Source: Candidatus Kapaibacterium sp.
GTDB lineage: Bacteria > Bacteroidota > Ignavibacteria > Kapaibacteriales > Kapaibacteriaceae
NCBI GenBank assembly: GCA_018882585.1
Contig: VFFB01000001.1
Span: forward strand, 1,793 to 65,792
Reading direction: 5' to 3'
DNA length: 64,000 bases
Below the pieces are notes generated by a model, which worked only from the letters and a program-made list of their open reading frames with translations, made no database searches and had not been told where the DNA came from. Made by a program: the position numbers and the translations under genes. Below, in pieces: positions 1-48,729 of the stretch (its first letter is position 1; every line of letters begins with the position of its first letter).

Positions 1-2558
1 GCGAGCGAGAAGGTGCTGCCTGCGGCGATCGCGCGAATGTTTGTAAGGCCGTCGACCTTTGCCATGGCATGTCGGTCGGCCGTGGTGCCGTCTCCGAGCT
101 GTCCGCTGGCATTGCCACCCCACGTGTACACGGTACCGTCGGCGGCAAGCGCCATTGAGTGGAACTCTCCGGCAGCAACGGCAACAAAGGTGCGTGCCTG
201 CTTGGCTACGGCCATCAGCGTCGGTCCGGACGAGATAAGGCGTGGCGCCGATATCTGCTGCTCGTCGGCGTCAGCGCCGACCTGTCCGTAGTTGTTGACG
301 CCCCAACCATACAGGCTGCCGCCGGCTCCGAGTGCTACGTTGTGGTGTGCCCCTGCGGCTACGTCTACGATGTTCGACAGACTCATGATCGGGAACAGCA
401 CGGGAATGTGCAAGACGGCCATCACCTGGTCTGACGTCGGATCTCGATACTCGGTCACATTCAGTCCGGCCTCGCCGTTCTGATTGAAGCCGGCCACGTA
501 CACGTAGCCATTGGCACCCAGCACAAGCGAGTGGCGTTCGCCGGCCGAGACCTTTGCCACCTTGAGCGTTGCATAGCTGGCAGGTTCGGCAACGTCGGTT
601 CGCTTCGAAGCACCAAGACCAAGCTGGTAGTAGTCGTTCTCGCCCCAGACGTAGAGTTTACTATCACGTCCGGCAGCAAGGGAGTGGGCCATTCCGGCGG
701 CAACGGCATCAATATTCTTCACCGTCGCGATCGTCTGCGGAATGCTCACCAGCGCTCCCGTAGGCCGAGCCACCTGCCTGGATTCGTTGCTTCCCCACCC
801 CCACACAACATTGTCGGGCGGAAGTTTGTAGGCAGCAAAGTTGGCAAGCTTCGTCTGCGACGCTGGGTCGATCTTCTCCACCAACCCGGCCGTTGCAGGG
901 GGCGTTGTGATACTCGGCGCTGCCGTGAACGACGCAGCACCGGCATTGGCTTCGGCGAAGGTCTTGACGCTTGCTTTGATGCTGGGCATCGTCTGATCGA
1001 CCGTCGTCTCGAAGTCGTTCGAGAGTGTGCCCTTCGAGAACTTCCCGACGTCCTGCTTCAGCGTCGCATTGACGGTCGACGTCGTCTTGACCTGCGGCGT
1101 CACCGCGATCGAATGGCGTTCTCCTGCGGCCATCACCTGAACGGGTTGAGCGATGGAGTCGCGCTTCTCGAGATCGTAAAACCGTATCTGGTCGACGTTG
1201 ACGTGACCAACAGCAGAACGGTCGGCAATGACGATGCGGGCAGCGCGGTTCAGGAAGGGGCGCACGTCCCATTCCACCTGGGCCAGACGGTCCGAGACCG
1301 TCGTCGTGGCACGGCCACGAGCAGGCGTGGTAAACGAAGACCGTGCCACCCAGAACTCGCGGTCGGAGCCGGGCAGTTTTCGTGCAGCGAGACGAAAGGT
1401 ATCCTTTGGCAGACGCTCCACGTAGAGCTCGACGGCCGCATCAGCTGTGCCGCTGCCACCAACGAGTGCGCCGATGGCACTGTTCTTGACCTGGAACTCT
1501 TCGGATACCATGGTGCCGCGAGCCTTGTCGCCAAGCAGGGACGTCCTCGAGGTGACCCACCATTTCCGTTCGGGCGACACATCGCCAAGTACTGGGTGCT
1601 GACCCGGCGTAGGCTGATCAACCCACGCATCGCCATCGACAGTCCAGCAGGCAAGTGTGCCGACCTCGAAATCCCAGTTCTCGCCTTGGCAGACGTCAGA
1701 CACGGCAGGACTCTTACTGGTCGTGGTTATCGTTGTCGTATCCTTCGTCACGGCCATCGTATCGCGCGTGATCAGAAACGACCAGACTTCCGAGACGCCC
1801 AGCGTGACCAAGGCCGTGGCCGTTCGCTCGTATGCCATGATCATCCACGCATAGCGGCGTCCAACTTCGAATTGCCGCGCAGAAACCGGATACTGCAACA
1901 CGGTGGACTTGATGTCATTAACCGTCAGGAAGGCGGGATTCCGTTCTACGGCGTCGAAAGGCGTTTGTGTGCCGAACATTTCAGCTATCGTCAACTTGTA
2001 TAGCACCTGTTGGCCGGCTGCGGGCGGCGTACCGGCCAACCATGAAAAGATCGGCAGCTTGTCGTAGACGTCGCTTTCGTCCGGCGGCGTGATCAGCACC
2101 GGCTGCGTCAGCCTAGTTACGGTTGTGAACTTGCAGTCGCGACCAATGGCCTGTTCCGTTTCGGCCGAGATGACCTCGGTGCACATCGTATACTCGCCCG
2201 ACGGGACGGAACCCGCCTGCAGCAGCGCATCAATGTACTTGCTGTTTTCGTTGGCCGTTGTGATCGGCTGCACGTCGGTGCCCGTCAGGCGTATGCGCCC
2301 CGGGGCCAGCTTGAAGACACGCGTTGTTGCCTCGACGACAACACCGTCAGGTACCGACGTCTCTTCGATGGTGCCGAATAGGCGCACCTCGAGGGTCCTG
2401 CCTGACCGGTTGTTCAGCTCGATGCTCCATAAATCGCTGATGCGCAGCTGATTCGGCGGCGGCTGCGACACGCGCACGTCGACCACGTCCTGGGCCTGCA
2501 TTGCGATTGCCCAGACGACTGCCGTGATGATGCAAGCCGTTCGTCGAAATCCGTTCAT
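1..2558 (-). CDS. Secreted RCC1-repeat (beta-propeller) protein, partial: the C-terminus runs off the left edge of the window. The ORF track does not list it because it is incomplete.
   Basis: ATG at 2558-2556 is preceded on the minus strand by GGAGGTGG. The N-terminus MNGFRRTACIITAVVWAIAMQAQ is a signal peptide. The frame stays open to position 1. The C-terminal half holds repeated RCC1-like blades (YVWGENDYYQLG, YGWGVNNYGQVG, YTWGGNASGQLGDG). Confidence 0.6.
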   Translation of the reverse strand, partial: MNGFRRTACIITAVVWAIAMQAQDVVDVRVSQPPPNQLRISDLWSIELNNRSGRTLEVRLFGTIEETSVPDGVVVEATTRVFKLAPGRIRLTGTDVQPITTANENSKYIDALLQAGSVPSGEYTMCTEVISAETEQAIGRDCKFTTVTRLTQPVLITPPDESDVYDKLPIFSWLAGTPPAAGQQVLYKLTIAEMFGTQTPFDAVERNPAFLTVNDIKSTVLQYPVSARQFEVGRRYAWMIMAYERTATALVTLGVSEVWSFLITRDTMAVTKDTTTITTTSKSPAVSDVCQGENWDFEVGTLACWTVDGDAWVDQPTPGQHPVLGDVSPERKWWVTSRTSLLGDKARGTMVSEEFQVKNSAIGALVGGSGTADAAVELYVERLPKDTFRLAARKLPGSDREFWVARSSFTTPARGRATTTVSDRLAQVEWDVRPFLNRAARIVIADRSAVGHVNVDQIRFYDLEKRDSIAQPVQVMAAGERHSIAVTPQVKTTSTVNATLKQDVGKFSKGTLSNDFETTVDQTMPSIKASVKTFAEANAGAASFTAAPSITTPPATAGLVEKIDPASQTKLANFAAYKLPPDNVVWGWGSNESRQVARPTGALVSIPQTIATVKNIDAVAAGMAHSLAAGRDSKLYVWGENDYYQLGLGASKRTDVAEPASYATLKVAKVSAGERHSLVLGANGYVYVAGFNQNGEAGLNVTEYRDPTSDQVMAVLHIPVLFPIMSLSNIVDVAAGAHHNVALGAGGSLYGWGVNNYGQVGADADEQQISAPRLISSGPTLMAVAKQARTFVAVAAGEFHSMALAADGTVYTWGGNASGQLGDGTTADRHAMAKVDGLTNIRAIAAGSTFSL

Positions 2559-2765: not shown

Positions 2766-5700
2766 ATGGACCGACACTTGCTGCGGATCGACGCCCTGCG
2801 ACGGCAGACGATCCCGCGCATCGAGGCTGCACCGCGCGAGCTCCTTGATGTGGTAACACGCCCCGATCGCCACGTGGTGTCGCGTCGCCGTGCCCTTGGT
2901 ATCGCCGGAGCACTTTCGGTGACGGCTGCCCCGCTGGCCCGCGCCATGAGCAGCATCTTCCGACAAGACTGCACGATGATCCGCCGCGGCCGCGCCATCG
3001 TCTTCCTCGTTGCCAACGTCGAACGCTGGGTGATCGACCCGGACATGTTCTCGGGCGATCCACGCCTGGAGGTCGACCGGAGCGAAGACTCGATCGCAAT
3101 CTCCCTTCGCGGCGCCCTGTATCCGGGGACCAACCTTCCGGCCGATCTGACGTGTCGCATTGGTACTGCGGGACGTTGGACGGCGACGTTCGAACGAGAT
3201 GGTTTCACGTCGCCCCCTGTTGACATGGTGGAGTGGTTGCTTGACGCGGCCGTCGTTGCAATACCTGCGCGGCAGGCTGTAAGCATTCGCTGCACCGAGG
3301 CATTGCTGCATGTCACAACGAACGATGTGCGGTTCCGGCCGTCGTGGACGCTGCACCTTGCCGGCACCACAACGATGCAGACCGGACAACTGCGGCTTGC
3401 ATCAAACGGCATCGACGTGGCACTTCCTGCACGGCAGCGTTCCACGATGTTCTCGAAGAAACCGGCTAAACGCTCCGTCGTCCGTGTTGCCCGCGACGGC
3501 CACGCATGGACGATCCCGCTGTCGCTGCAGGGCCTGCCCGCGTGGAAGCTTGGCATTGCCGACGATGCCTTCGACAGCTTGAGCATCGAATGCAGCGACG
3601 ACGGACGCGCAGCGTTTGCCCTTGAAGGTAGCCGCGACGGTGGAGTAGCCTTTGTCCACCGACACGTTTCGTCGGCCATACGTCTGCGCAACGTCCGCTA
3701 TGCATGGTCACGCGGCGACAATGGTCTGCACGAGGCCCTGGTTGCCCGCTACAGCAACGCATCGGAGTGGTTGCACTTCGACGGCATCAACATCGAGATC
3801 GGTGACCGCTCCGAGATCCCGCCGCTCGAGATCACGAGCGTTAATGGCGAAGTCACCCGCATGAACATCGCTCCGGGCATGCTGCGCTACAGTGTTCCTG
3901 TCGATGGCGCCATCACCGAGCCTACGTCCATGCCCTCGGGCTCGCAGCTTGCGTTCATCACGGCTGCGGTTGCCACCAAGGCTCTGCCCAAAGCCCATTT
4001 CCACATGGCTGCCGTGCAGATCGATGCCCAGGCAGGCATCATCAAGCAGATCGAGACAACAAAGAAGCTGCCAACAGGTAAACCTCGCTCCGTCAATGTC
4101 CGCAAGAGTCTTGGCGTGCTAAAACCCGGTGCTGTAGCACTCGCGGGAAATCCTACCATCACCGTGATCCGTCCCGAAGACCTGATGGTCCTGACCTTCG
4201 AGTTCATGGGCATCACGCTGAACAAAGCCGCGGGCACCTTCACAGCCGGTGGTAACGCCAAGCTGATCGTGCATTTCCAGCCACAGCATATCGCCGAGCG
4301 GGCCTTCTTCACCACGCAGGAGAAGCCCAATACCGACGAGATCAGATCGCCGTCGAATCCGGCACAGGCAAAAAAGAATCTTCCGCAAGGGGCAACGGAC
4401 GAACCGTTGCTGGACCCGCCGATCGACGCGGTGATGGCCCACGGCTCGCGCCTGGTACTGCGCGTTCCTTCGGGATATACAGGCTTCCTTCGCGTGACGC
4501 CGCCGCCCGACGCCGATCCCTTGGTGCCGTCCAAGATGCTGCTGGATTGGTCTGCCTTCACGATGCACGTTTCGCCGTCGGCAAAGCCGCCTTCGACGGG
4601 ACTTGTCTTCGGCATGCTGTCGGGCGCTTTCACCACGAAGTACACGGCCTCGTTCGCCGACAAGGGTCTTAACACCAAGCCCGTACGCAGCGTCGGCACC
4701 AAGGGCGCAACCTTCACGCGTGGCGTCAGCAAGCGGTCGTACAAGGCCCCTTCCGTGACCCTGAATGTCGAGGGGGAACGGGCACCGCTCACGAATTACA
4801 TCAAGGCACAGATCGACACGCAGCCCGACATCATGGCTGCCGTTCCTTCGCCCTGGATGCAAGAGATCGTGGCTGCCGCCAACCAGAAGCCGCCGATCCG
4901 CGAACCGCTGGCAGACGAGACGGCCATTGAGTATCCGTACCGTCTGATCATGTCGCCCAACAAGTATGCCGGCTGGGCACATACACAGGCGCCGGCCTGG
5001 GGCAAGGACCTTGCCGAGAATGTCACGCGCCGTGTCGAACTGTGGCACACACGTCTTGGCGTCAAACACAGCGACGGTCGCGTGAGCGAAGAGGCCGCCT
5101 ACCTGCGGACGATGCGGGCCATCTGGACGCCCGATATCAACACGCAGCGAACGCTGGACGCCAAGTACATGGAGCGGCCGTTCCGTACGTCGCTCAATCG
5201 TCGTGACCGCTGGGAGCTGGTACGTCTGATGTCGGACTATGCCATGGCCACCAAGACGGCCCCCATGGAAGTACGCCGGTTTATGATGTCGGCGCTTGGC
5301 GCCTGGGCAGATATGACGGGTGTGTGGGATCCGCTGGGCGAAGATGGCCTTGATGTGGAACAGTGGATCCAGCGAGGTGCCCAGGGTCGGGACCACTTTG
5401 TACGCATTTGCTATAAGGGCTATCTGTTCCCCTTCGGACATCGGGCGACGCTTGTGAAGGAGACCGAGCGGAAGTTCCGGCGGACGCCGCGTGGCGATAT
5501 GGCTGCCTATCTGCTGCAGCGGCTGTATATCATCCTGCGGCAGCCCCTTCGGGAATTTCCGGCCGACGGCTTGCAAGGCCAGAAGTATCAGGGTCGCGAC
5601 TTCCCCTTCCGCAGCGTCGTTATCACGACCAAGACAACACCGAACCTGAACCTTCCGGTCAAGCTGCATCCAAGTCTCTCGCCCAACTCCTTCTGGCCGC

Positions 5701-7901
5701 AGTTCAGCACGTCGGCCGGCGGCACTCAGGACGTGCAGTGGGCATGCGTGGGAACAGACTGGGATGGCAACGAGACGCAGTTCTCGACGCCGCTTGCCTT
5801 TGTGGCAAATACAGATGCTACCAACGACGCAAACCTTGCCTCGTTTATCAACGGCGATTACCAGACCAAGGCCGACAACAAAGCTCGTCGAGCCGTTGCC
5901 ATGTCGGGTCAGCAGATCGCCTTTGCTCCGTCGGTCAAACGCGGCGACACGGCTCTGCCCGTGACGGTCTTGACGCTCAACGCACACTACAGCGATACGG
6001 TACCGGCAAACACCGTGCGGTTTTTTCCGCGCATGGAAAAGGCTGCGGCACGCATCGAAAAGGTCGACGAGCTGCTTGGCACACAACTGCCGCGTGACGT
6101 TTCGTTCGCATCGCAGTTTCTGGATTATGCCTTCGACGCCGGCAGCGAGGTCAAGAAGGCCGGTCAGGCCGTCAATACCGCCAACGTGCGCAACCCAAGT
6201 CAGATCTTCCTGAAGCTGCTTTCGACGGCCGACATGGACTTCGGCTCTAGCTCGGACAAGTCGGGCGGCCTGGCGGCTCCCAGCATGCAGATCGCAGGTC
6301 TGTCCCGACTCACGGGCCCCATGCCGGGCTCGATCAGCGGCGCCGTCAACTCGCTGGAAGACATCGCCAACAATGCTGCTGCCGCGGGCTCCTTCGATCC
6401 GATGGAGTACTTCGGCTCGCTCCTCAGCACCAAGATCCTTGGCGATATCACGCTGAAAGACGTGCTGAGTTTTGTGTCGGATATTCTGTCGAATGCCGAC
6501 AAGATGCCTGGTCTTGAGCGCAAGGACGAATTCGGCATGGCCGAGACGCAACAGGCGCTCAAGGACTTTACCAGTGAGGTCAAGACGCAGGTCCAGAGCT
6601 TCTCTAACGACGTCGCCCAGGACGTTGTGGACGCAAAGAAGGACTTGATGGACGAAGCTGACAAGGTCAAGGCCGAGATCGAGTCCTACATCAGCGCCGG
6701 CAAGCAGGCTGCCGAACATGAGATCAAGGCGTGGAAGAAAGCCATCGAGGATAAGCTTGGCGCACTCAAGTCAGAGGTCGACAAGGCCATCAAACCGCTG
6801 AAGGATGCGGGCAATGAGGCGTACAAGAAGTACGAGGAGGCCCAAGGCTACCTGAACTCCATCGCCAAGGGCGTCCAGCTTGTCTACGAGTGGCAAACCA
6901 AGATCACGTCCAGTCCGGGCAACATCCTGATGCCGATGCCGGGCAAGGATGCCGTTCTTGCGCTCAAGACGGAGATGGTCAAAAAGATCGACCTCTCTCC
7001 GCCTGTCGTCAAGGTCTTCGGCTCGCTCACCAACTTCGTCATCAACCTGATCGGCGACGGAGCAGCCAAGTTCCTTGTCATCAAGTTCAACTACATCAAG
7101 GTCTCGGCAATTGTCGGACAAAAGCCGAGCATCGACCCCAACATCGACGACGTCGAGTTTGCCGGCGCGTTGTCCTTCGTCAACAAACTCCGCGACCTGA
7201 TTCCCAAAGGGGGCTCGGGCAGCGCCGGCGGCGTTGGCTTCTCGTTCGAATTCGACGTCAAGCCGTCGGGCATCACCGCCGCGCTCACGATTGGTCTGCC
7301 CGCCGTAACCGTCGGCGTCTTCTCGCTGCAGAACATCTCGTTCCTGATGAAGGTGACCATTCCGTTCGACGGACGTCCCTTCGCCGCGTACTTCGCCTTC
7401 TGCACCAAGGACAATCCCTTCCGGCTTACGATCATGGTCTTTGGGGGCGGCGGTTTCTTCGGCATCGAGGTCACGCCGTCCGGCGTGCGCATGCTTGAAG
7501 CTGCCTTCGAGTTCGGCGGCAACTTCTCGTTCAACTGCGGCGTCGCCTCGGGCGGCGCCTCGGTCATGGCCGGCATCTACTATAAGCTGGAGACAAAGAA
7601 CATCGACGGCAAGGACGTGCAGCAGTCGGAACTCACCGGCTACTTCCGTCTGCAGGGCAACCTTAGCGTGCTGGGCCTGATCCGCGTCAACCTGCTGTTC
7701 GAGCTCAAACTAACCTGGTTGAGCACCGGCAAGGTCTTTGGCACGGCCACCGTCGAAGTCGAGATCGAAGTGCTGTTCCTGTCATTCAGCGTGGGCGTCA
7801 CCGTCGAGCGTCAGCTCAAGGGCAGCGACGGCGACCCGACGTTCAAGGACATGTTGCCGCAGCCGGCGCTGTGGCTTGAGTATTGCGACAGTTTTGCCTA
7901 A
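2766..7901 (+). CDS. Giant hypothetical protein (1711 aa) with no recognisable catalytic motif. Its C-terminus has a coiled-coil, apolipoprotein-like helical region followed by a Gly-rich amphipathic beta-strand module.
   Basis: Strong SD GGAGGA lies 4 nt before the ATG. The 5.1-kb frame is uninterrupted, with host-like codon usage and GC3 bias. An internal twin-arginine-like motif SRRRALGIAGALSVTAAPLARA sits about 40 aa from the N-terminus. The C-terminal approximately 470 aa split into two parts. First come heptad-like K/E/A-rich helices (KDLMDEADKVKAEIESYISAGKQAAEHEIKAWKKAIEDKLGALKSEVDKAIKPL). Then come alternating hydrophobic beta patterns (GFSFEFDV, FRLTIMVFGGGGFFGIEVTP, VEVEIEVLFLSFSVGVTVE). 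Confidence 0.7.
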   Translation: MDRHLLRIDALRRQTIPRIEAAPRELLDVVTRPDRHVVSRRRALGIAGALSVTAAPLARAMSSIFRQDCTMIRRGRAIVFLVANVERWVIDPDMFSGDPRLEVDRSEDSIAISLRGALYPGTNLPADLTCRIGTAGRWTATFERDGFTSPPVDMVEWLLDAAVVAIPARQAVSIRCTEALLHVTTNDVRFRPSWTLHLAGTTTMQTGQLRLASNGIDVALPARQRSTMFSKKPAKRSVVRVARDGHAWTIPLSLQGLPAWKLGIADDAFDSLSIECSDDGRAAFALEGSRDGGVAFVHRHVSSAIRLRNVRYAWSRGDNGLHEALVARYSNASEWLHFDGINIEIGDRSEIPPLEITSVNGEVTRMNIAPGMLRYSVPVDGAITEPTSMPSGSQLAFITAAVATKALPKAHFHMAAVQIDAQAGIIKQIETTKKLPTGKPRSVNVRKSLGVLKPGAVALAGNPTITVIRPEDLMVLTFEFMGITLNKAAGTFTAGGNAKLIVHFQPQHIAERAFFTTQEKPNTDEIRSPSNPAQAKKNLPQGATDEPLLDPPIDAVMAHGSRLVLRVPSGYTGFLRVTPPPDADPLVPSKMLLDWSAFTMHVSPSAKPPSTGLVFGMLSGAFTTKYTASFADKGLNTKPVRSVGTKGATFTRGVSKRSYKAPSVTLNVEGERAPLTNYIKAQIDTQPDIMAAVPSPWMQEIVAAANQKPPIREPLADETAIEYPYRLIMSPNKYAGWAHTQAPAWGKDLAENVTRRVELWHTRLGVKHSDGRVSEEAAYLRTMRAIWTPDINTQRTLDAKYMERPFRTSLNRRDRWELVRLMSDYAMATKTAPMEVRRFMMSALGAWADMTGVWDPLGEDGLDVEQWIQRGAQGRDHFVRICYKGYLFPFGHRATLVKETERKFRRTPRGDMAAYLLQRLYIILRQPLREFPADGLQGQKYQGRDFPFRSVVITTKTTPNLNLPVKLHPSLSPNSFWPQFSTSAGGTQDVQWACVGTDWDGNETQFSTPLAFVANTDATNDANLASFINGDYQTKADNKARRAVAMSGQQIAFAPSVKRGDTALPVTVLTLNAHYSDTVPANTVRFFPRMEKAAARIEKVDELLGTQLPRDVSFASQFLDYAFDAGSEVKKAGQAVNTANVRNPSQIFLKLLSTADMDFGSSSDKSGGLAAPSMQIAGLSRLTGPMPGSISGAVNSLEDIANNAAAAGSFDPMEYFGSLLSTKILGDITLKDVLSFVSDILSNADKMPGLERKDEFGMAETQQALKDFTSEVKTQVQSFSNDVAQDVVDAKKDLMDEADKVKAEIESYISAGKQAAEHEIKAWKKAIEDKLGALKSEVDKAIKPLKDAGNEAYKKYEEAQGYLNSIAKGVQLVYEWQTKITSSPGNILMPMPGKDAVLALKTEMVKKIDLSPPVVKVFGSLTNFVINLIGDGAAKFLVIKFNYIKVSAIVGQKPSIDPNIDDVEFAGALSFVNKLRDLIPKGGSGSAGGVGFSFEFDVKPSGITAALTIGLPAVTVGVFSLQNISFLMKVTIPFDGRPFAAYFAFCTKDNPFRLTIMVFGGGGFFGIEVTPSGVRMLEAAFEFGGNFSFNCGVASGGASVMAGIYYKLETKNIDGKDVQQSELTGYFRLQGNLSVLGLIRVNLLFELKLTWLSTGKVFGTATVEVEIEVLFLSFSVGVTVERQLKGSDGDPTFKDMLPQPALWLEYCDSFA

Positions 7902-33698: not shown

Positions 33699-36482
33699 AT
33701 GAGAGTTCGCGCTGGCTTGACTGCACTGATGTTGATGTCAGCTGCGCTCTCCGTGGCCGCACAGAAACGCGAGGTTCGCGGCATTGTCATCGACAGTGCA
33801 ACCAGAACGCCACTTCCCGGGGCCAAGATTACGATCGGCCGTGTTGCCGACTCAACAGTGAGCGGAGCACTTTCCGATCGTCGGGGCCAGTTCGTTCTTC
33901 GTGGCGTGTCCGAAGGAATCAACGTCCTGCATGTATCCTACGTGGGATACCAGACGCGCGGCGATACCGTGAATATTCTGCGTTCCGGCCTGACGCTCGA
34001 CACGATACGTCTTGCTCAAGGCATGATCTCGACGGCCGACGTACTCGTTACCGGCAGAGCCGTCCGAGTGCTGCAACGCGGAGATACCACGGAATACAAT
34101 GCGAGTGCGTTCCGCGTGGATACCAACGCAAATGCCGACGCATTGGTGCGGCAGCTGCCCGGCGTGACCATGGCCGACGGCAAGGTACGCGCGCAGGGCG
34201 AACAGGTCGACCAGATCCTTGTGGACGGACAGCCATTCTTCGGCAACGATGTCACGGCCACCCTTGTCAACCTCCCCGCCTCGATCATCGATAAGGTCGA
34301 GATTTATGACACGAAGTCGGACGAGGCCAAGGAGACCGGCATCGCAGAGGAATCCACGACCAAGACGATGAACATCGTCACGCAAGAGGACAAACGAATG
34401 GGATACTTTGGTCGTGCCAGGACAGGCTATGGCGATGAGGCCAGATACGAGGCCTACGGCACGATCAGTCACTTCGACACGCTCATTCGTGCCACGATCC
34501 TGTCCATGTCGAACAACGTCAACGATCAAAGCTTTTCGTTCGAAGATGTGCTGAGCAGCCTTGCTACGGAGTCCGTTAGTGGGGGACACTACATCACAAC
34601 CGACGATAATGACGCGTTGAACGCATACTTTAAGCCCGACCGCCAAGGCATCATTCGCACCAACTCTCTTGGTGCCAACGTGTCGACTCGGTTTGGCAAG
34701 TCTTCGCAGGCATCCTTGAATTACGTCATGAGCGATGCACGCTCCGATGCCGCCTCGAGCACACTTCGCCAGTACTTCAATTCCGGAGCGTCCCTCCAGC
34801 TGTTTCGCCAGGTCGATACGTCAACGTCAACAAACCAGCGGCACCAGCTCATTGGAAACCTTCGGTATGACATTGACTCTTCGACGCGCTTCACGCTGCG
34901 GCCGAATGCATCATTTGACAATGCATCGTCCAATGCCATGCTGGAAGGACTTACCCGCATCGACGGCATGCCGCAAAACGCGACAGCATCATCTTCCTCG
35001 ACCGACATGCATTCGTCCGCACTGTCAACAGATGCAAGTCTCCTGCGACGTTTTCGCAATCGCCGTCGAAGCATGACGATATCGTTGCGCGCGTCAACAG
35101 CGGCAACCGATGGCACGAGCTCGCTGCAGGCAACAGGCATACGTGGTGGGCAGACGGACCGAACCGATACGACCGATCAGCGCGGCATTCAGGATGTTGC
35201 CACAACAACATGGGCGCCTACGATCTCGTACAATGAACCCTTGAGCGACAACATCATGCTGCGATTCTCGCTTGACGGCTCGTTCTCTTCGTCACGCTCG
35301 GATCGCCGAACGTCTACAGATCCAGATCGTAGCGGCAGCTATGCCTCTCTTGACACGCTGCTGTCGAATGTCTTTCAGCAACAGACCAGATCGCTTGCCT
35401 CAGCAACATCGTTCATCTGGAGTGACTCGGCAATACGATTCGCCACCGGCGTCCGCTATCAATCGCTCCAACTAGATGGTGAGTCGATCTTCCCTATATC
35501 GGTGCTCACAACAAGAACCTTCGAAAACGTGCTACCTGATGTAAGTCTGGCCTTCCTGGCACTCGATAACGCAAGCCTGAGATTTGATTACGAAGCGTCA
35601 ACCGTTACTCCTACCATCAAACAGATGCAGAATGTCCTGAACAACAGCAACCCTCTGCTGCTGTCGATCGGAACGCCTTCGCTGGAGCAGTCCCTGACGC
35701 ATCGACTATCGATGAACTACTCAACGGCTATCAGTTCCATCAATGGCTTCGCCTACCTGTTCGCTCGAACGGGATATACCAGCGACCCCATCAGCACCAG
35801 CATGATCATTGCCGGCAGGGACACCATTGCCGACGGAATCACCCTGGCACAAGGTGCGCAGCTGACGCGCCCAGTCAACCTCGACAAGGCGATCGATGCA
35901 AGTCTTGACGGATACTTCAGCTTCGATCTGGACTCGCTGCCCATCAGCGTAAACCTCAACTCTAGCCTCAGATTCGACCAGACCCCCAGCCTGATCAATG
36001 GCAGCAGCAATCGAACGTCAACCATGGCGATCTCCGGCGGTGCCAGCCTGTATTACCGCCTCGACGAACGATTCAATGCCTCGGCAACATTCAACGTCGA
36101 CCACAGCACAGTACGCAACACGTTACAGCAGGACCTCAACACGGTCTTCACCAACGTGACGGTCACTGCCCAAGTGGACTGGACGTTCTGGGAAGGACTC
36201 GTGCTGCGGGCCGATGTTAGCAACCGTCGCAACAGCGGCTTCAGTTCGGGCTTCGGCCAGAACATTGCCCTGTTGAATGTCACACTGGCAAAGAAGCTAT
36301 TCAACAATGATCGGGGCGAGCTGGCCATCTATGTCAGGGATGCCCTGAATCAGAATCAGGCCGTCGACCGCATCGTGCAACCGGCATTTACTGAAGACCA
36401 GCGCTTCATGCAGCTCCAGCGCGTCGCCATGGTAACGTTTACATACAAGTTTCGATCCTTCGGTAAGACGTTGTTCGACTGA
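33699..36482 (+). CDS. Outer-membrane beta-barrel protein: carboxypeptidase-regulatory-like domain, TonB-dependent-receptor Plug, then barrel. First of two paralogs.
   Basis: Signal peptide MRVRAGLTALMLMSAALSVAAQ. Then RGIVIDSATRTPLPGAKITI (CarbopepD_reg). Then a Plug-like region ending ...LPGVTMADGKVRAQGEQVDQILVDGQPFFGND. A long beta-rich C-terminus ends in aromatic-rich strands. Confidence 0.8.
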   Translation: MRVRAGLTALMLMSAALSVAAQKREVRGIVIDSATRTPLPGAKITIGRVADSTVSGALSDRRGQFVLRGVSEGINVLHVSYVGYQTRGDTVNILRSGLTLDTIRLAQGMISTADVLVTGRAVRVLQRGDTTEYNASAFRVDTNANADALVRQLPGVTMADGKVRAQGEQVDQILVDGQPFFGNDVTATLVNLPASIIDKVEIYDTKSDEAKETGIAEESTTKTMNIVTQEDKRMGYFGRARTGYGDEARYEAYGTISHFDTLIRATILSMSNNVNDQSFSFEDVLSSLATESVSGGHYITTDDNDALNAYFKPDRQGIIRTNSLGANVSTRFGKSSQASLNYVMSDARSDAASSTLRQYFNSGASLQLFRQVDTSTSTNQRHQLIGNLRYDIDSSTRFTLRPNASFDNASSNAMLEGLTRIDGMPQNATASSSSTDMHSSALSTDASLLRRFRNRRRSMTISLRASTAATDGTSSLQATGIRGGQTDRTDTTDQRGIQDVATTTWAPTISYNEPLSDNIMLRFSLDGSFSSSRSDRRTSTDPDRSGSYASLDTLLSNVFQQQTRSLASATSFIWSDSAIRFATGVRYQSLQLDGESIFPISVLTTRTFENVLPDVSLAFLALDNASLRFDYEASTVTPTIKQMQNVLNNSNPLLLSIGTPSLEQSLTHRLSMNYSTAISSINGFAYLFARTGYTSDPISTSMIIAGRDTIADGITLAQGAQLTRPVNLDKAIDASLDGYFSFDLDSLPISVNLNSSLRFDQTPSLINGSSNRTSTMAISGGASLYYRLDERFNASATFNVDHSTVRNTLQQDLNTVFTNVTVTAQVDWTFWEGLVLRADVSNRRNSGFSSGFGQNIALLNVTLAKKLFNNDRGELAIYVRDALNQNQAVDRIVQPAFTEDQRFMQLQRVAMVTFTYKFRSFGKTLFD

Positions 36483-36602
36483 ACCTTTTCGCCTATTCGC
36501 CGGTTTTGTACCGTCGGCACGTCGATCCGTAGGTTCGTACGTGAAATGTCGTAGCAATACGTCATGGCCCACCGCACCTATCTGCACATTCCCTTCGGCA
36601 TC

Positions 36603-39485
36603 ATGCACTCCCGTTTCCTGCTCGCCCTGGTCGTCCTGGCCGGCCTAACCACGTCTGTGTTCGCACAATCCTTCAGCGCAACCGGCACCGTAGTCGACAG
36701 TGCGGCCGGTACGCCATTGAACGGCGCGCGCGTAGCATTCACACGACTTCAGGACTCCGTCATGAAAGGGGCAGTGACGGACCGTCAAGGCACGTTCACC
36801 GTCGAGGGACTCGACCGCGGCCGCTACGGCGTCCGCATCTCGTTCGTAGGCTATGCCCCCTTCGAGCGAACAGTGACGATCACAAATGGCACACTACGGA
36901 TGGGGCGCATCCAGCTTGTTGCCGGCGGCGTACAGGCCGAGGACGTTGTGGTGACCGAACGCGTGATCCCCATGCTCCAGAAGGGCGATACGTCCGAGTT
37001 CAATGCCAATGCCTACAAGGTGAACAAGGATGCCAATGCCGACGACCTTGTGCAGAAAATGCCGGGCGTTACCGTCGTGGACGGCCGCGTACAGGCCCAG
37101 GGCGAGAGCGTGCAGCGCGTACTTGTCGACGGACGTCCGTTCTTCGGTAACGACCCGAACGCTGCGCTGCGTAACCTGCCGGCCGAGATCGTCGATAAGG
37201 TCCAGATCTACGATGCCGGAAGCGACCAGCAGCGATTCACAGGTTTCGGCGATGGGAATACGACTAAGACGATGAACATCATGACCAGGATGGGCATGCG
37301 CAATGGACAGTTTGGTCGCTTTACCGCCGGCTATGGCGCCGACGACAGATACAAGGCTTCCGGCACCTACAACCTGTTCGACAACACGCAGCGAATCACC
37401 ATTCTGGCTCAATCAAACAACACGAACGAACAAAACTTCTCGATCGAAGATCTCTTCGGCGGCATGATGGGCGGCGGCAGCGGCGGCGGTGGATTCATGC
37501 GTCGCATGTCGGGCATGATGGGCGCCATGCGCAATCCCACTGGCATGATGGGCCGCTGGCGCGGTGGTGGCGGCGGCATGAGCGACTTCCTTGTCGACCA
37601 GCGCAACGGCGTTACGCTTACGCATGCAGCCGGCCTGAACTATGCCGATAAATGGGGGTCGAACATCGACGTATCAGCCAGCTACTTCGTCAACTACAGC
37701 GACAACTCGGCGACGCAGAATCTGCTGCGCCAGTTCGTGATCCCAACGCTGCAAGACCAGACATACTCACAGGACGACCAAACGACCTCGCAGAACACGA
37801 ACCATCGTTTGAACCTGCGCGCCGAGGTCGCCCTCGACACAAACACGTCGTTCCTGCTAAGTCCTCGCCTTACGCTGCAGCAGAACGACGGACTGACGTC
37901 GTTCCGTGGGAATACGCTGCTGTTGACCGACACGCTTAATCGGACGACGAACAGCACGACGACCGGCCTGACGGGCATCAACGCATCGAACGACCTGCTG
38001 TTCCGCCATCGGTTCGCGACGTTTGGACGTACCTTCTCCGTCAACATCAACACGCAGTACAACGACAACAACGGCACAAATACGCTGCTTGCCACCAACG
38101 ACTACGTTGGCCAGGGTGGCTTTATCGATACCGTCGACCAGCAATCCCGGCTTATCAAAGATGGCTATACCATTGCCCCCACGGTGACCTATACCGAACC
38201 ACTGTGGACGAACACGGGCCTGTCTTTGTCCTACAATGCGTCGTACAATGTGAGCACGTCGGACCGTCGGACCTTCACACCTGACGAGCCCTCGGCTCTG
38301 TTCGTCAACCTTGACACAACGCTGTCGAATACCTTTGCCACGACGTATTTCACACAGTCTGTCGCGCCTGCGTTTCAGTGGCAGGACGGAGAATGGCGCG
38401 CCAATGCCGGCGTTGCCGTGCAGAGGGCCGAGCTCTCGGGTGACCGTACCTTCCCGTTCAGCGGTGCCGTCCAACGCACCTTCACGAACATCCTTCCGAA
38501 TGCATCCGTCTCGATTCCCGTTACCACCGACGCATCGCTTAGGTTTAACTACACAACGCGGACGAATGCACCGTCGGTCGACCAGATGCAAAACGTGCTC
38601 AACAACACCAATCCCTTGCAGTTGTCCATCGGCGATCCGAATCTTTCACAGGACCTTTCGCACAACCTTTCGGCGCGATACGCTTCGTCGATCCCCCACT
38701 CTGCGTCAAGCTTCTTCGCCGTCGTCTCCGGCAGTGTCACGCAGGACTACATCGGCAACAGCACGGTGATCGCCGGACGCGACACCATCGTCGATGGCAT
38801 CAACCTTGGACGCGGCGCACAGCTCAGCAAACCCGTCAATATGGACGGTTTCGCCAGTGTGCGGTTCTTCTCCACGTACTCTACACCGATCGATCTGATC
38901 AAGTCGAACGTCAACGTCTTTGCGTCGTATAACCTGACGCGCACGCCGGGCATGGTAAACGGCGTCGAGAACATCGCCCTTGCTCCGGTCTACACGGGCG
39001 GCGTTGTCATCAGCAGCAACGTGAGCGAGTTCCTGGACTTCACGGTGTCCACCAACATCAGCGCAAACCAAGTGCGGAACAGCGTCCGCAGCGACCTGAA
39101 CTCCGACTTTCTGTCTGCGTTCTCGCGCTTCAAGTGGTCATGGCAGACGTGGGGCGGCATCGTCCTTGCCGGCGACGTCAGCCATCAGCTCAACAAGGGC
39201 TATACGGAAGGGTTCGACCAGAGCATCTGGCTTGTGAATGTCTCCGTGGCTAAGAAGTTCCTGCAGAACGACAGGGCCGAAGTTCGCCTGTCGGTGAACG
39301 ACGCCTTGAACCAGAACAACATGATCAACCGGAACATCACCGACGCCTACATCGAAGACACGCAGCAGAACATCCTGCGCCGCGTGATTCTACTCACATT
39401 CTCGTACTCGCTGCGCAACTTCGGCACGGGCACCAGTACGGCACCGAGCATGTTTGGCGGACCTCGGGACGGACGTCGCGACTAA
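36603..39485 (+). CDS. Paralogous outer-membrane beta-barrel protein (CarbopepD_reg, Plug, barrel) with a Met/Gly-rich low-complexity insert.
   Basis: ATG 36603 gives the signal peptide MHSRFLLALVVLAGLTTSVFAQ; the ORF track starts at 36564. Same architecture as the upstream paralog (LPGVTVVDGRVQAQGESVQRVLVDGRPFFGND). A unique insert reads FGGMMGGGSGGGGFMRRMSGMMGAMRNPTGMMGRWRGGGGGMSDF. Confidence 0.8.
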   Translation: MHSRFLLALVVLAGLTTSVFAQSFSATGTVVDSAAGTPLNGARVAFTRLQDSVMKGAVTDRQGTFTVEGLDRGRYGVRISFVGYAPFERTVTITNGTLRMGRIQLVAGGVQAEDVVVTERVIPMLQKGDTSEFNANAYKVNKDANADDLVQKMPGVTVVDGRVQAQGESVQRVLVDGRPFFGNDPNAALRNLPAEIVDKVQIYDAGSDQQRFTGFGDGNTTKTMNIMTRMGMRNGQFGRFTAGYGADDRYKASGTYNLFDNTQRITILAQSNNTNEQNFSIEDLFGGMMGGGSGGGGFMRRMSGMMGAMRNPTGMMGRWRGGGGGMSDFLVDQRNGVTLTHAAGLNYADKWGSNIDVSASYFVNYSDNSATQNLLRQFVIPTLQDQTYSQDDQTTSQNTNHRLNLRAEVALDTNTSFLLSPRLTLQQNDGLTSFRGNTLLLTDTLNRTTNSTTTGLTGINASNDLLFRHRFATFGRTFSVNINTQYNDNNGTNTLLATNDYVGQGGFIDTVDQQSRLIKDGYTIAPTVTYTEPLWTNTGLSLSYNASYNVSTSDRRTFTPDEPSALFVNLDTTLSNTFATTYFTQSVAPAFQWQDGEWRANAGVAVQRAELSGDRTFPFSGAVQRTFTNILPNASVSIPVTTDASLRFNYTTRTNAPSVDQMQNVLNNTNPLQLSIGDPNLSQDLSHNLSARYASSIPHSASSFFAVVSGSVTQDYIGNSTVIAGRDTIVDGINLGRGAQLSKPVNMDGFASVRFFSTYSTPIDLIKSNVNVFASYNLTRTPGMVNGVENIALAPVYTGGVVISSNVSEFLDFTVSTNISANQVRNSVRSDLNSDFLSAFSRFKWSWQTWGGIVLAGDVSHQLNKGYTEGFDQSIWLVNVSVAKKFLQNDRAEVRLSVNDALNQNNMINRNITDAYIEDTQQNILRRVILLTFSYSLRNFGTGTSTAPSMFGGPRDGRRD

Positions 39486-41636: not shown

Positions 41637-48729
<7,093 letters not shown>

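Follow-up and report, generated by a model that had tools for sequence, protein, structure and literature searches.

Two giant genes stand in tandem near the start of the stretch of DNA analysed here, 64,000 nucleotides of the Candidatus Kapaibacterium sp. contig VFFB01000001.1 (hereafter the window): open reading frame (ORF) 1, called the 'A' gene, and ORF2, called the 'B' gene. The present account concerns mainly the C-terminal part of the ORF1 product, and the features discussed are collected in Table 1. The ATG of ORF1 is preceded by a GGAGG Shine-Dalgarno sequence, and the ATG of ORF2 lies 14 nt past the ORF1 stop. An initial annotation of the span 6490-7898, which corresponds to ORF1 residues ~1242-1711, described there an apolipoprotein-like coiled coil followed by a latent amphipathic beta region of the kind that inserts into membranes. 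The four peptides quoted in it are all present in ORF1 (residues 1482-1498, 1552-1571, 1581-1606 and 1663-1681), and both the helices and the beta region are real, although their boundaries had been placed wrongly. As to the interpretation, the amphipathic beta domain stands, whereas an obligatory helix-plus-beta unit and an autotransporter had to be abandoned.

Table 1. Features of the ORF1-ORF2 locus and other genes of the window (positions are those of the window, residues those of ORF1)
Feature	Position	Strand	Description
ORF1, 'A' gene	2766..7901	+	1711 aa; ORF list and translation; unannotated family of giant proteins
Twin-arginine (Tat)-type signal SRRRALGIAGALSVTAAPLARA	2880..2945	+	residues 39-60; motif, hydrophobic stretch, AxA
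Junction motif ..FDPMEYF..KILGDITLKDVL..	6387..6491	+	residues 1208-1242, 5' of the helical insertion; near-invariant F, P, F, L, G, L columns
Amphipathic helical arm, four helices	6540..6863	+	residues 1259-1366; AlphaFold2 helices, periodicity; insertion varying by lineage
Beta module, N-terminal sub-sheet	6873..7160	+	residues 1370-1465, ~6 strands; AlphaFold2 block-mean predicted local distance difference test (pLDDT) 86-96; hairpin ladders by coevolution
Amphipathic helix inside beta module, GALSFVNKLRDL	7164..7199	+	residues 1467-1478; AlphaFold2; near-invariant GPLxFVxxLxxLIP consensus
Beta module, main sheet	7236..7820	+	residues 1491-1685, ~14 strands
C-terminal tail, GDPTF...W..YC.AFA	7821..7898	+	two short helices (AlphaFold2); near-invariant G, P, W, Y, F columns
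ORF2, 'B' gene	7916..12145	+	1409 aa; GGAG Shine-Dalgarno sequence; partner of ORF1
RCC1-repeat gene	3-2537	-	divergent from ORF1; runs off the window start
SRPBCC (Polyketide_cyc2) and GyrI-like fusion	12142-13146		overlaps the ORF2 stop; small-molecule-binding
Two tandem CarboxypepD_reg and OMP_b-brl_3 barrel proteins	33699-36482, 36564-39485		TonB-dependent-receptor-like architecture
1653-aa ORF	41637-46598	-	reprolysin-like M12 metallopeptidase, CARDB, two Laminin_G_3 domains

The beta module is the best-conserved block of ORF1, with a column identity of 0.73-0.83 against 0.3-0.7 elsewhere, and also its sole net-hydrophobic block; beta-amphipathy and hydrophobicity are restricted to residues ~1370-1690. 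This degree of conservation shows that the domain is real and under selection. An AlphaFold2 model of residues 1201-1711 built from 26 sequences reached a pLDDT of 65.8, i.e. moderate confidence, and a model of residues 1362-1711, built from 140 sequences after 120 further beta-module sequences had been collected, reached a pLDDT of 90.2 with a predicted template modelling score (pTM) of 0.66. The second model bears out the expectation of an antiparallel all-beta domain, at dimensions other than those first proposed: in place of 10-12 strands in roughly 230 residues starting near residue 1480, ~20 strands are predicted across ~320 residues, beginning already at ~1370. By this prediction residues ~1370-1685 would form an up-and-down antiparallel meander which locally has the geometry of a barrel wall. 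The last seven strands of the main sheet are 12-20 residues long each and are joined by turns of 2-4 residues, the Gly-rich loop 1479-1490 is modelled with low confidence, and after the end of the last strand at residue 1685 there follows a 25-residue helical tail closing in ..YCDSFA. Invariant or near-invariant Gly motifs of the main sheet are FGGGGFFG, FEFGG (LEAAFEFG) and GVASGG. The meander topology does not depend on AlphaFold alone, because mean-field direct-coupling analysis of 274 family sequences (effective number 210, the signal being noisy) recovers the sequential antiparallel hairpin registers of the model; the top-scoring pair is 238-269, and the ladder sums 507, 463, 422, 552 and 619 agree with the model. 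Coevolution contacts also connect the helix 1467-1478 with strands at 1502-1533 and join strands three apart, and no clear pairing signal between the first and the last strand emerged from the 274 sequences. Foldseek gave no significant match for the model of residues 1201-1711, and for the beta-module model no match with E < 0.01 and query-normalised template modelling (TM) scores of at most 0.29, because of which the modelled domain as a whole does not appear to be a canonical closed barrel.

The alternation of hydrophobic and polar residues, initially called strict, lies above chance but covers 0.62 of the steps (121 of 196 within residues 1490-1686, z = 3.3), compared to 0.51 in the remaining protein; the accompanying Gly enrichment holds, the content being about doubled (12.7% vs 6.9%). 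Across 140 homologues, almost all strands from residue 1491 onwards have one hydrophobic face, with a mean Kyte-Doolittle value of +1.6 to +3.4, and an opposite face at -0.2 to -1.9, which is rich in G, S, T and A and carries conserved Gly patches and near-invariant Glu residues. The two tandem OMP_b-brl_3 proteins of the window served as an internal positive control for barrel detection, and the Pfam model OMP_b-brl_3 recognises both of them (E = 5e-26 and 2e-25). The ORF1 module has a mean Kyte-Doolittle value of +0.39 and consists of V, I, L, F and M in 38%, compared to -0.23 and 28% for these true barrels.

The helical part of the initial annotation, strongly heptad-patterned helices rich in K, E, A and D with repeated KxxxE spacing, holds in composition but not as heptads. 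Residues 1240-1380 contain 48% of K, A, E and D, and the hydrophobic periodicity of the segment is very strong (matched by 0 of 1000 shuffles), but the period peaks at 3.6-3.65 residues and not at the 3.5 of a canonical heptad; the segment is an amphipathic, hendecad-like helix. The excess of charge pairs at i/i+3 and i/i+4 in residues 1240-1380 is present but modest (23 vs 16.4 +/- 3.5 in shuffles, p = 0.04). AlphaFold2 places helices at 1259-1277, 1285-1310, 1317-1347 and 1353-1366, and the arm is probably an antiparallel hairpin of ~110 residues, running ~50 up and ~50 down. In 168 homologues the length of the insertion, counted from the junction motif (residues ~1208-1240) up to where the first beta strand starts, has a multimodal distribution: 70 of them (42%) have 0-40 residues, 74 have 100-160, about ten have ~230-270 and others up to 612, with 122 residues in ORF1 itself and ~600-700 in alphaproteobacterial giants. 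The lengths cluster near 0, ~120-150, ~240, ~370 and ~610 residues, which suggests stepwise duplication of a ~120-residue helical-hairpin unit. Because the insertion varies from 0 to more than 600 residues, the helices are an optional, lineage-variable arm at a fixed insertion point and not half of an obligatory helix-plus-beta device; the coiled coil and the latent beta module do not make up a unit.

The proposed resemblance of this arm to apolipoproteins did not hold up either. The Pfam Apolipoprotein model PF01442 matches residues 1260-1348 at 21.6 bits (E = 2e-4), far from its gathering cut-off of 90 bits, a threshold that reflects tandem 11/22-mer repeats. When the family profile was compared with the PDB, the helical segment matched apoA-IV (E = 5e-5), apoE and apolipophorin-III, with E-values between 5e-5 and 1e-3; the likeness is compositional, since the same segment also matches myosin, ATP synthase b, ZorA and tape-measure proteins, all sub-threshold. 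A true apolipoprotein was rejected, as PF01442 stays below threshold and the helices are neither conserved nor essential. Some homologue records carry the database name 'apolipoprotein A1/A4/E family protein', which is a mislabelling.

The beta module turned out to mark a very large family. A word-indexed search with full-length ORF1 found 26 relatives, all 'hypothetical', and full-length homologues are 47-93% identical. An exhaustive HMMER search with residues 1372-1711 yielded at least 3175 representatives of clusters defined at 50% identity with E <= 1e-3, of which 1229 also reach E <= 1e-30. In 150 of 150 listed hits the matched domain is C-terminal or lies within ~70 residues of the C-terminus, and identity of the module between phyla amounts to 40-50%. 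The hits are whole-protein homologues, because they align with the ORF1 core as well (residues ~460 or 710 to 1250). They come from Kapabacteria, Ignavibacteria, Chlorobi, Bacteroidota, Pyrinomonadaceae and Vicinamibacterales, and further from Symbiobacteriaceae, Paenibacillus borealis, Actinomycetota, Sabulicella and Methylorubrum. A hand-built codon-pattern scan of one genome per GTDB species gave at least 120 loci with at least 94 confirmed family members in more than 12 phyla; isolates among the matches listed are Bradyrhizobium erythrophlei, Asticcacaulis biprosthecium, Actinoplanes cyaneus, Pelomonas sp. Root1237 and Litoreibacter meonggei. Single-membrane bacteria (monoderms) are represented by Paenibacillus borealis, the Bacillus cereus group, Streptomyces and Actinoplanes. 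The family is found on 17 plasmid or chromid records (Bacillus cereus-group megaplasmids, C. metallidurans CH34, Rhizobium, Streptomyces), and no copy was found in phage records.

Against Pfam, NCBIfam, PADLOC and PHROGs, neither ORF1 nor ORF2 gave anything beyond sub-threshold coiled-coil noise. The Pfam and NCBIfam matches of ORF1 all fall within the helical segment, and so do its sole PADLOC-DB 2.0 matches, to ZorA, LeoA and LmuB (E >= 2e-4); ORF2 has none there. Pfam scans of 11 other family members and of members with long or odd architecture revealed no accessory domain. Sequence and profile searches of the PDB returned nothing for the ORF1 core, the beta module or ORF2, with matches in the coiled coil alone, and no description of the A/B family was found in a literature search. 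The family cannot be placed in any known system, and none of Pfam (2025), NCBIfam (2026), PADLOC and PHROGs contains a model for it; the fold class, an amphipathic antiparallel meander, is nevertheless a familiar one, and databases are already full of 'hypothetical protein' entries for the family. Its hallmarks, all present here, are the C-terminal FGGGGFFG / LEAAFEFG / GVASGG motifs and a B-type gene directly downstream.

ORF2 itself has no signal peptide and no match in the PDB or the profile collections named above, yet it resembles the 1860-aa protein encoded after the A gene of Methylorubrum (E = 1e-14). Of the 80 listed loci from other genomes with at least 700 nt beyond the A stop, 78 have next, in the same orientation, a B-type N-terminus marked by the motif WTALPNG..LRLSV.VSPRL..FPDWLDWP. 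ORF2 belongs to an unannotated family of its own and, judged by this co-occurrence, is an obligate partner of A. The A-then-B order was seen seven times amid unrelated flanking genes: in Ignavibacteria (1693 and 1419 aa), Methylorubrum (2864 and 1860 aa), Paenibacillus (1388 and 1268 aa), Sabulicella (2471 and 1376 aa, with insertion sequence (IS) elements on the flanks), Pyrinomonadaceae (1294 and 1373 aa), Symbiobacteriaceae (1451 and 1297 aa) and on Bacillus plasmids. No third conserved gene belongs to the cassette across the compared loci, and the genes upstream of it vary: Peptidase_C70 in B. bombysepticus, a GntR-like gene in Symbiobacteriaceae and none elsewhere. Rare B homologues end in Big_3_5 or PG_binding_1 domains, which are typical of extracytoplasmic proteins and hint that B may act outside the cytoplasm. 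On the Bacillus tropicus plasmid pBEMB20-1 the genes around the cassette encode HNH endonucleases, a helicase and an HD-domain protein, and the Pyrinomonadaceae cassette has HNH and dUTPase genes close by; neighbours in these two loci also include dNTP pyrophosphohydrolase or dUTPase, a setting that recalls defence islands.

Near its N-terminus ORF1 carries an S/T-R-R-x-F/a-L motif, a moderately hydrophobic h-region and an AxA site, the layout of a Tat signal, preceded by an unusually long n-region of 38 residues (M.R..LNL..LR...). The layout is conserved among long-form homologues, being present in 30 of 52 by a strict rule and in several more by eye. Such a signal implies that the ~185-kDa ORF1 protein may be exported in a folded state. 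On a Symbiobacteriaceae contig the operon runs from A, bearing the RR signal, through the signal-less B to tatA, an order to be expected if an A-B complex left by Tat with B hitchhiking; this is the only case of tatA beside the cassette, none being found in the other short loci. In Tat hitchhiker complexes, such as the hydrogenase small and large subunits or DmsAB, the first product likewise carries the twin-arginine signal and the coupled partner has none, and the cassette is akin to them in that some B partners bear domains of extracytoplasmic type and tatA closes one cassette. It differs from them in having no cofactor-binding domains and many members without a signal, and with ~340 kDa combined A and B would far exceed known Tat cargo.

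Taken together, the region encodes a C-terminal domain diagnostic of the giant 'A' proteins, a family that spans many phyla and lacks annotation. With a probability put at roughly 0.4, A would work together with giant 'B', and the domain may give an exported complex a membrane- or lipid-active, shielded beta surface. A would fold in the cytoplasm alongside the signal-less B, and the large hydrophobic face of the sheet would be shielded at that stage by B or by the module's own helix together with the VGVFSLxN segment. The A-B complex would then exit by the Tat pathway, and the beta domain would be the working end, its hydrophobic face being presented to, or inserted in, a bilayer or another hydrophobic surface without the beta-barrel assembly machinery (BAM); the helical arm would merely tune reach or shielding. 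Several observations weigh against such a membrane-active surface. Alternation alone cannot tell a lipid-facing face from one buried in protein, and the high hydrophobicity of the module would fit a buried protein core at least as well. Both faces of the sheet are conserved, and coevolution hints that the segment 1514-1522 and the helix touch several long strands; both points favour a stable globular fold. Tat quality control works against exposed hydrophobic surfaces. Finally, export is not universal, for an export signal is missing in ~60% of family representatives, those of Cupriavidus metallidurans CH34 and Bacillus included.

A soluble scaffold or docking domain is nearly as likely as the membrane-active surface. 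In that case the meander would be a flattened barrel or a sheet of two layers that holds A and B together and never enters a membrane; its apolar side would stay buried for good, covered by the VGVFSLxN segment and the helix 1467-1478 or packed on B or on the core of A. Conservation across phyla of both faces and of many specific residues is typical of packed interfaces, the composition is far more hydrophobic than that of genuine outer-membrane barrels of the same genome, and by coevolution several long strands are in contact with the segment 1514-1522 and with the helix, as are strands three apart with each other. The many signal-less homologues must be soluble in the cytoplasm, the A C-terminus stands directly ahead of the B N-terminus in 78 of 80 loci, and TM-scores to barrels do not pass 0.29. 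On the other hand, strands of 18-20 residues with GGGG runs are unusual in soluble sandwiches, a pTM of 0.66 beside a pLDDT of 90 suggests an extended rather than a compact object, and the coupling signal, with its effective number of 210 sequences, is noisy. An extended object would also suit a groove for lipid or other hydrophobic cargo, which is unlikely on present evidence. The sheet would curve into a half-barrel or open 'taco', take up lipids or other apolar molecules on its hydrophobic concave side and be covered by the helices as a lid, much like bridge-like lipid-transfer proteins (TamB/AsmA/VPS13) or the sheets of MTP, vitellogenin and apoB. The single continuous hydrophobic face speaks for it, as does the combination of high pLDDT and low pTM, typical of elongated sheets and expected of AsmA-like proteins with their beta-taco groove (TamB, YhdP), which ORF1 resembles as a giant envelope protein with an amphipathic beta-sheet that is hydrophobic on one face. 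Foldseek matches to MTP, lipovitellin and P47/OrfX TULIP proteins, weak as they are, point in this direction too. The placing of helices beside an amphipathic beta-sheet recalls MTP, vitellogenin and apoB together with the apolipoproteins, and the K/E/A/D-rich amphipathic helices share their 3.6-3.65 period with exchangeable apolipoproteins (apoA-I/A-IV/E, apolipophorin-III), to which the apoA-IV, apoE and apolipophorin-III profile matches point; moreover, an SRPBCC/GyrI-like ligand-binding gene stands directly downstream in the window and in the orthologous Ignavibacteria locus. Nevertheless, the MTP, lipovitellin and TULIP matches do not exceed 0.21 in probability or 0.13 in TM-score, the 21.6 bits against apolipoproteins fall under the cut-off, 42% of homologues lack the helices, and the SRPBCC neighbour is conserved within the close lineage only. 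The bridge-like groove named in the initial annotation finds no support in Pfam either, where AsmA, TamB, DUF490 and Chorein-N gave no match, and with amphipathic beta structure in no more than the last 320 residues out of 1711, ORF1 has no groove long enough to span the envelope. An AsmA-like bridge was thus rejected, lacking Pfam homology and a groove along most of ORF1.

It is improbable that the two genes form an accessory anti-phage or toxin system in which the beta domain, once activated, perforates the membrane of the producer or of a target from inside the cell. The cassette is autonomous, with unrelated flanks; megaplasmids of the Bacillus cereus group carry it, as do replicons of Rhizobium, Streptomyces and Cupriavidus; a signal peptide is missing from many members, and the surroundings in B. 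tropicus (HNH/helicase/HD), Pyrinomonadaceae (HNH/dUTPase) and Sabulicella (IS elements) would agree with such a role. Still, PADLOC yields coiled-coil noise alone, phages encode no copies among the records searched, synteny among housekeeping genes is stable in the window and in Ignavibacteria, forms with a Tat signal would act outside the cytoplasm, and no nuclease, NTPase or sensor domain could be detected. Least credible of all, and effectively refuted already, is a classical BAM-assembled outer-membrane beta-barrel or an autotransporter translocator for the upstream 1350-residue 'passenger', an architecture also named in the initial annotation. The organism is a diderm with BamD and type IX secretion system (T9SS) genes within the window, and as in type Va autotransporters a large N-terminal region and a helical segment precede a C-terminal beta domain of ~300 residues. 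No barrel or autotransporter model of Pfam or NCBIfam matches ORF1, however, although the two control barrels of the window are detected, and sequence and profile similarity to outer-membrane and organellar barrels (BtuB as a TonB-dependent transporter, CymA, PgaA and FhaC/TamA/BamA of the Omp85 family) is absent; Foldseek TM-scores up to 0.29 point the same way. Outer-membrane barrels have long external loops, a Sec signal and a beta-signal, whereas this module has turns of 2-4 residues at both strand ends and the family has a Tat signal or none; the 25-residue helical tail after the last strand leaves no terminal beta-signal. Unlike an autotransporter, the protein has ~20 strands rather than 12, a dispensable helical segment and an obligate separate partner, and its family extends to monoderms (Bacillus, Paenibacillus, Streptomyces). 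An Omp85-type barrel was excluded on the same grounds of Pfam, signal type and presence in monoderms.

To return to the membrane-active surface, its boldest form is a rather unlikely one: A and B as a new phylum-spanning machine, in which a self-contained, BAM-independent domain of ~20 strands can switch from a shielded soluble to a barrel-like membrane state and which, in lineages like this one, is exported as a folded ~340-kDa complex by Tat hitchhiking. Were it true, it would establish a new class of membrane-active beta-barrel common to monoderms and diderms and by far the largest Tat cargo known. If the more general reading, that of an exported, shielded beta surface, is right, thousands of 'hypothetical' giant gene pairs share one undescribed domain, and a domain with the geometry of a membrane beta-barrel occurs apart from Sec and BAM. 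Hosts of such pairs are soil-, plant- and insect-associated bacteria, including Bradyrhizobium, Streptomyces, Paenibacillus, Cupriavidus metallidurans CH34 and carriers of Bacillus cereus-group plasmids. The matter bears on the question how large amphipathic beta-sheets stay soluble and then reach membranes without dedicated insertases, and on the upper size of folded Tat cargo. Even as a soluble scaffold, the domain would define a very large family without a Pfam or NCBIfam model, with a clean domain boundary, diagnostic motifs and culturable hosts, and the A/B family is ready for curation and genetics.

As for the remaining genes, the window has a guanine plus cytosine content of ~60%. The product of the RCC1-repeat gene is 44% identical to the neighbour of the Ignavibacteria orthologue; a 490-aa ORF at 531-2003 on the plus strand was dismissed as spurious, since the true gene there is this RCC1-repeat gene on the minus strand. 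The SRPBCC/GyrI-like gene occupies the same place in the Ignavibacteria locus and is not found in distant cassettes. It opens the interval 12142-17573, the gene order of which is colinear with the Ignavibacteria genome GCA_016705185.1: the SRPBCC gene, two small uncharacterised ORFs of 183 and 105 aa, Era GTPase, BamD/YfiO, a 4HBT thioesterase and a T9SS plug-domain protein. This colinearity marks the source of the window as an Ignavibacteria/Kapabacteria-like diderm. Further downstream, the 1653-aa ORF probably encodes, judging by its domains, a secreted protease unrelated to ORF1.

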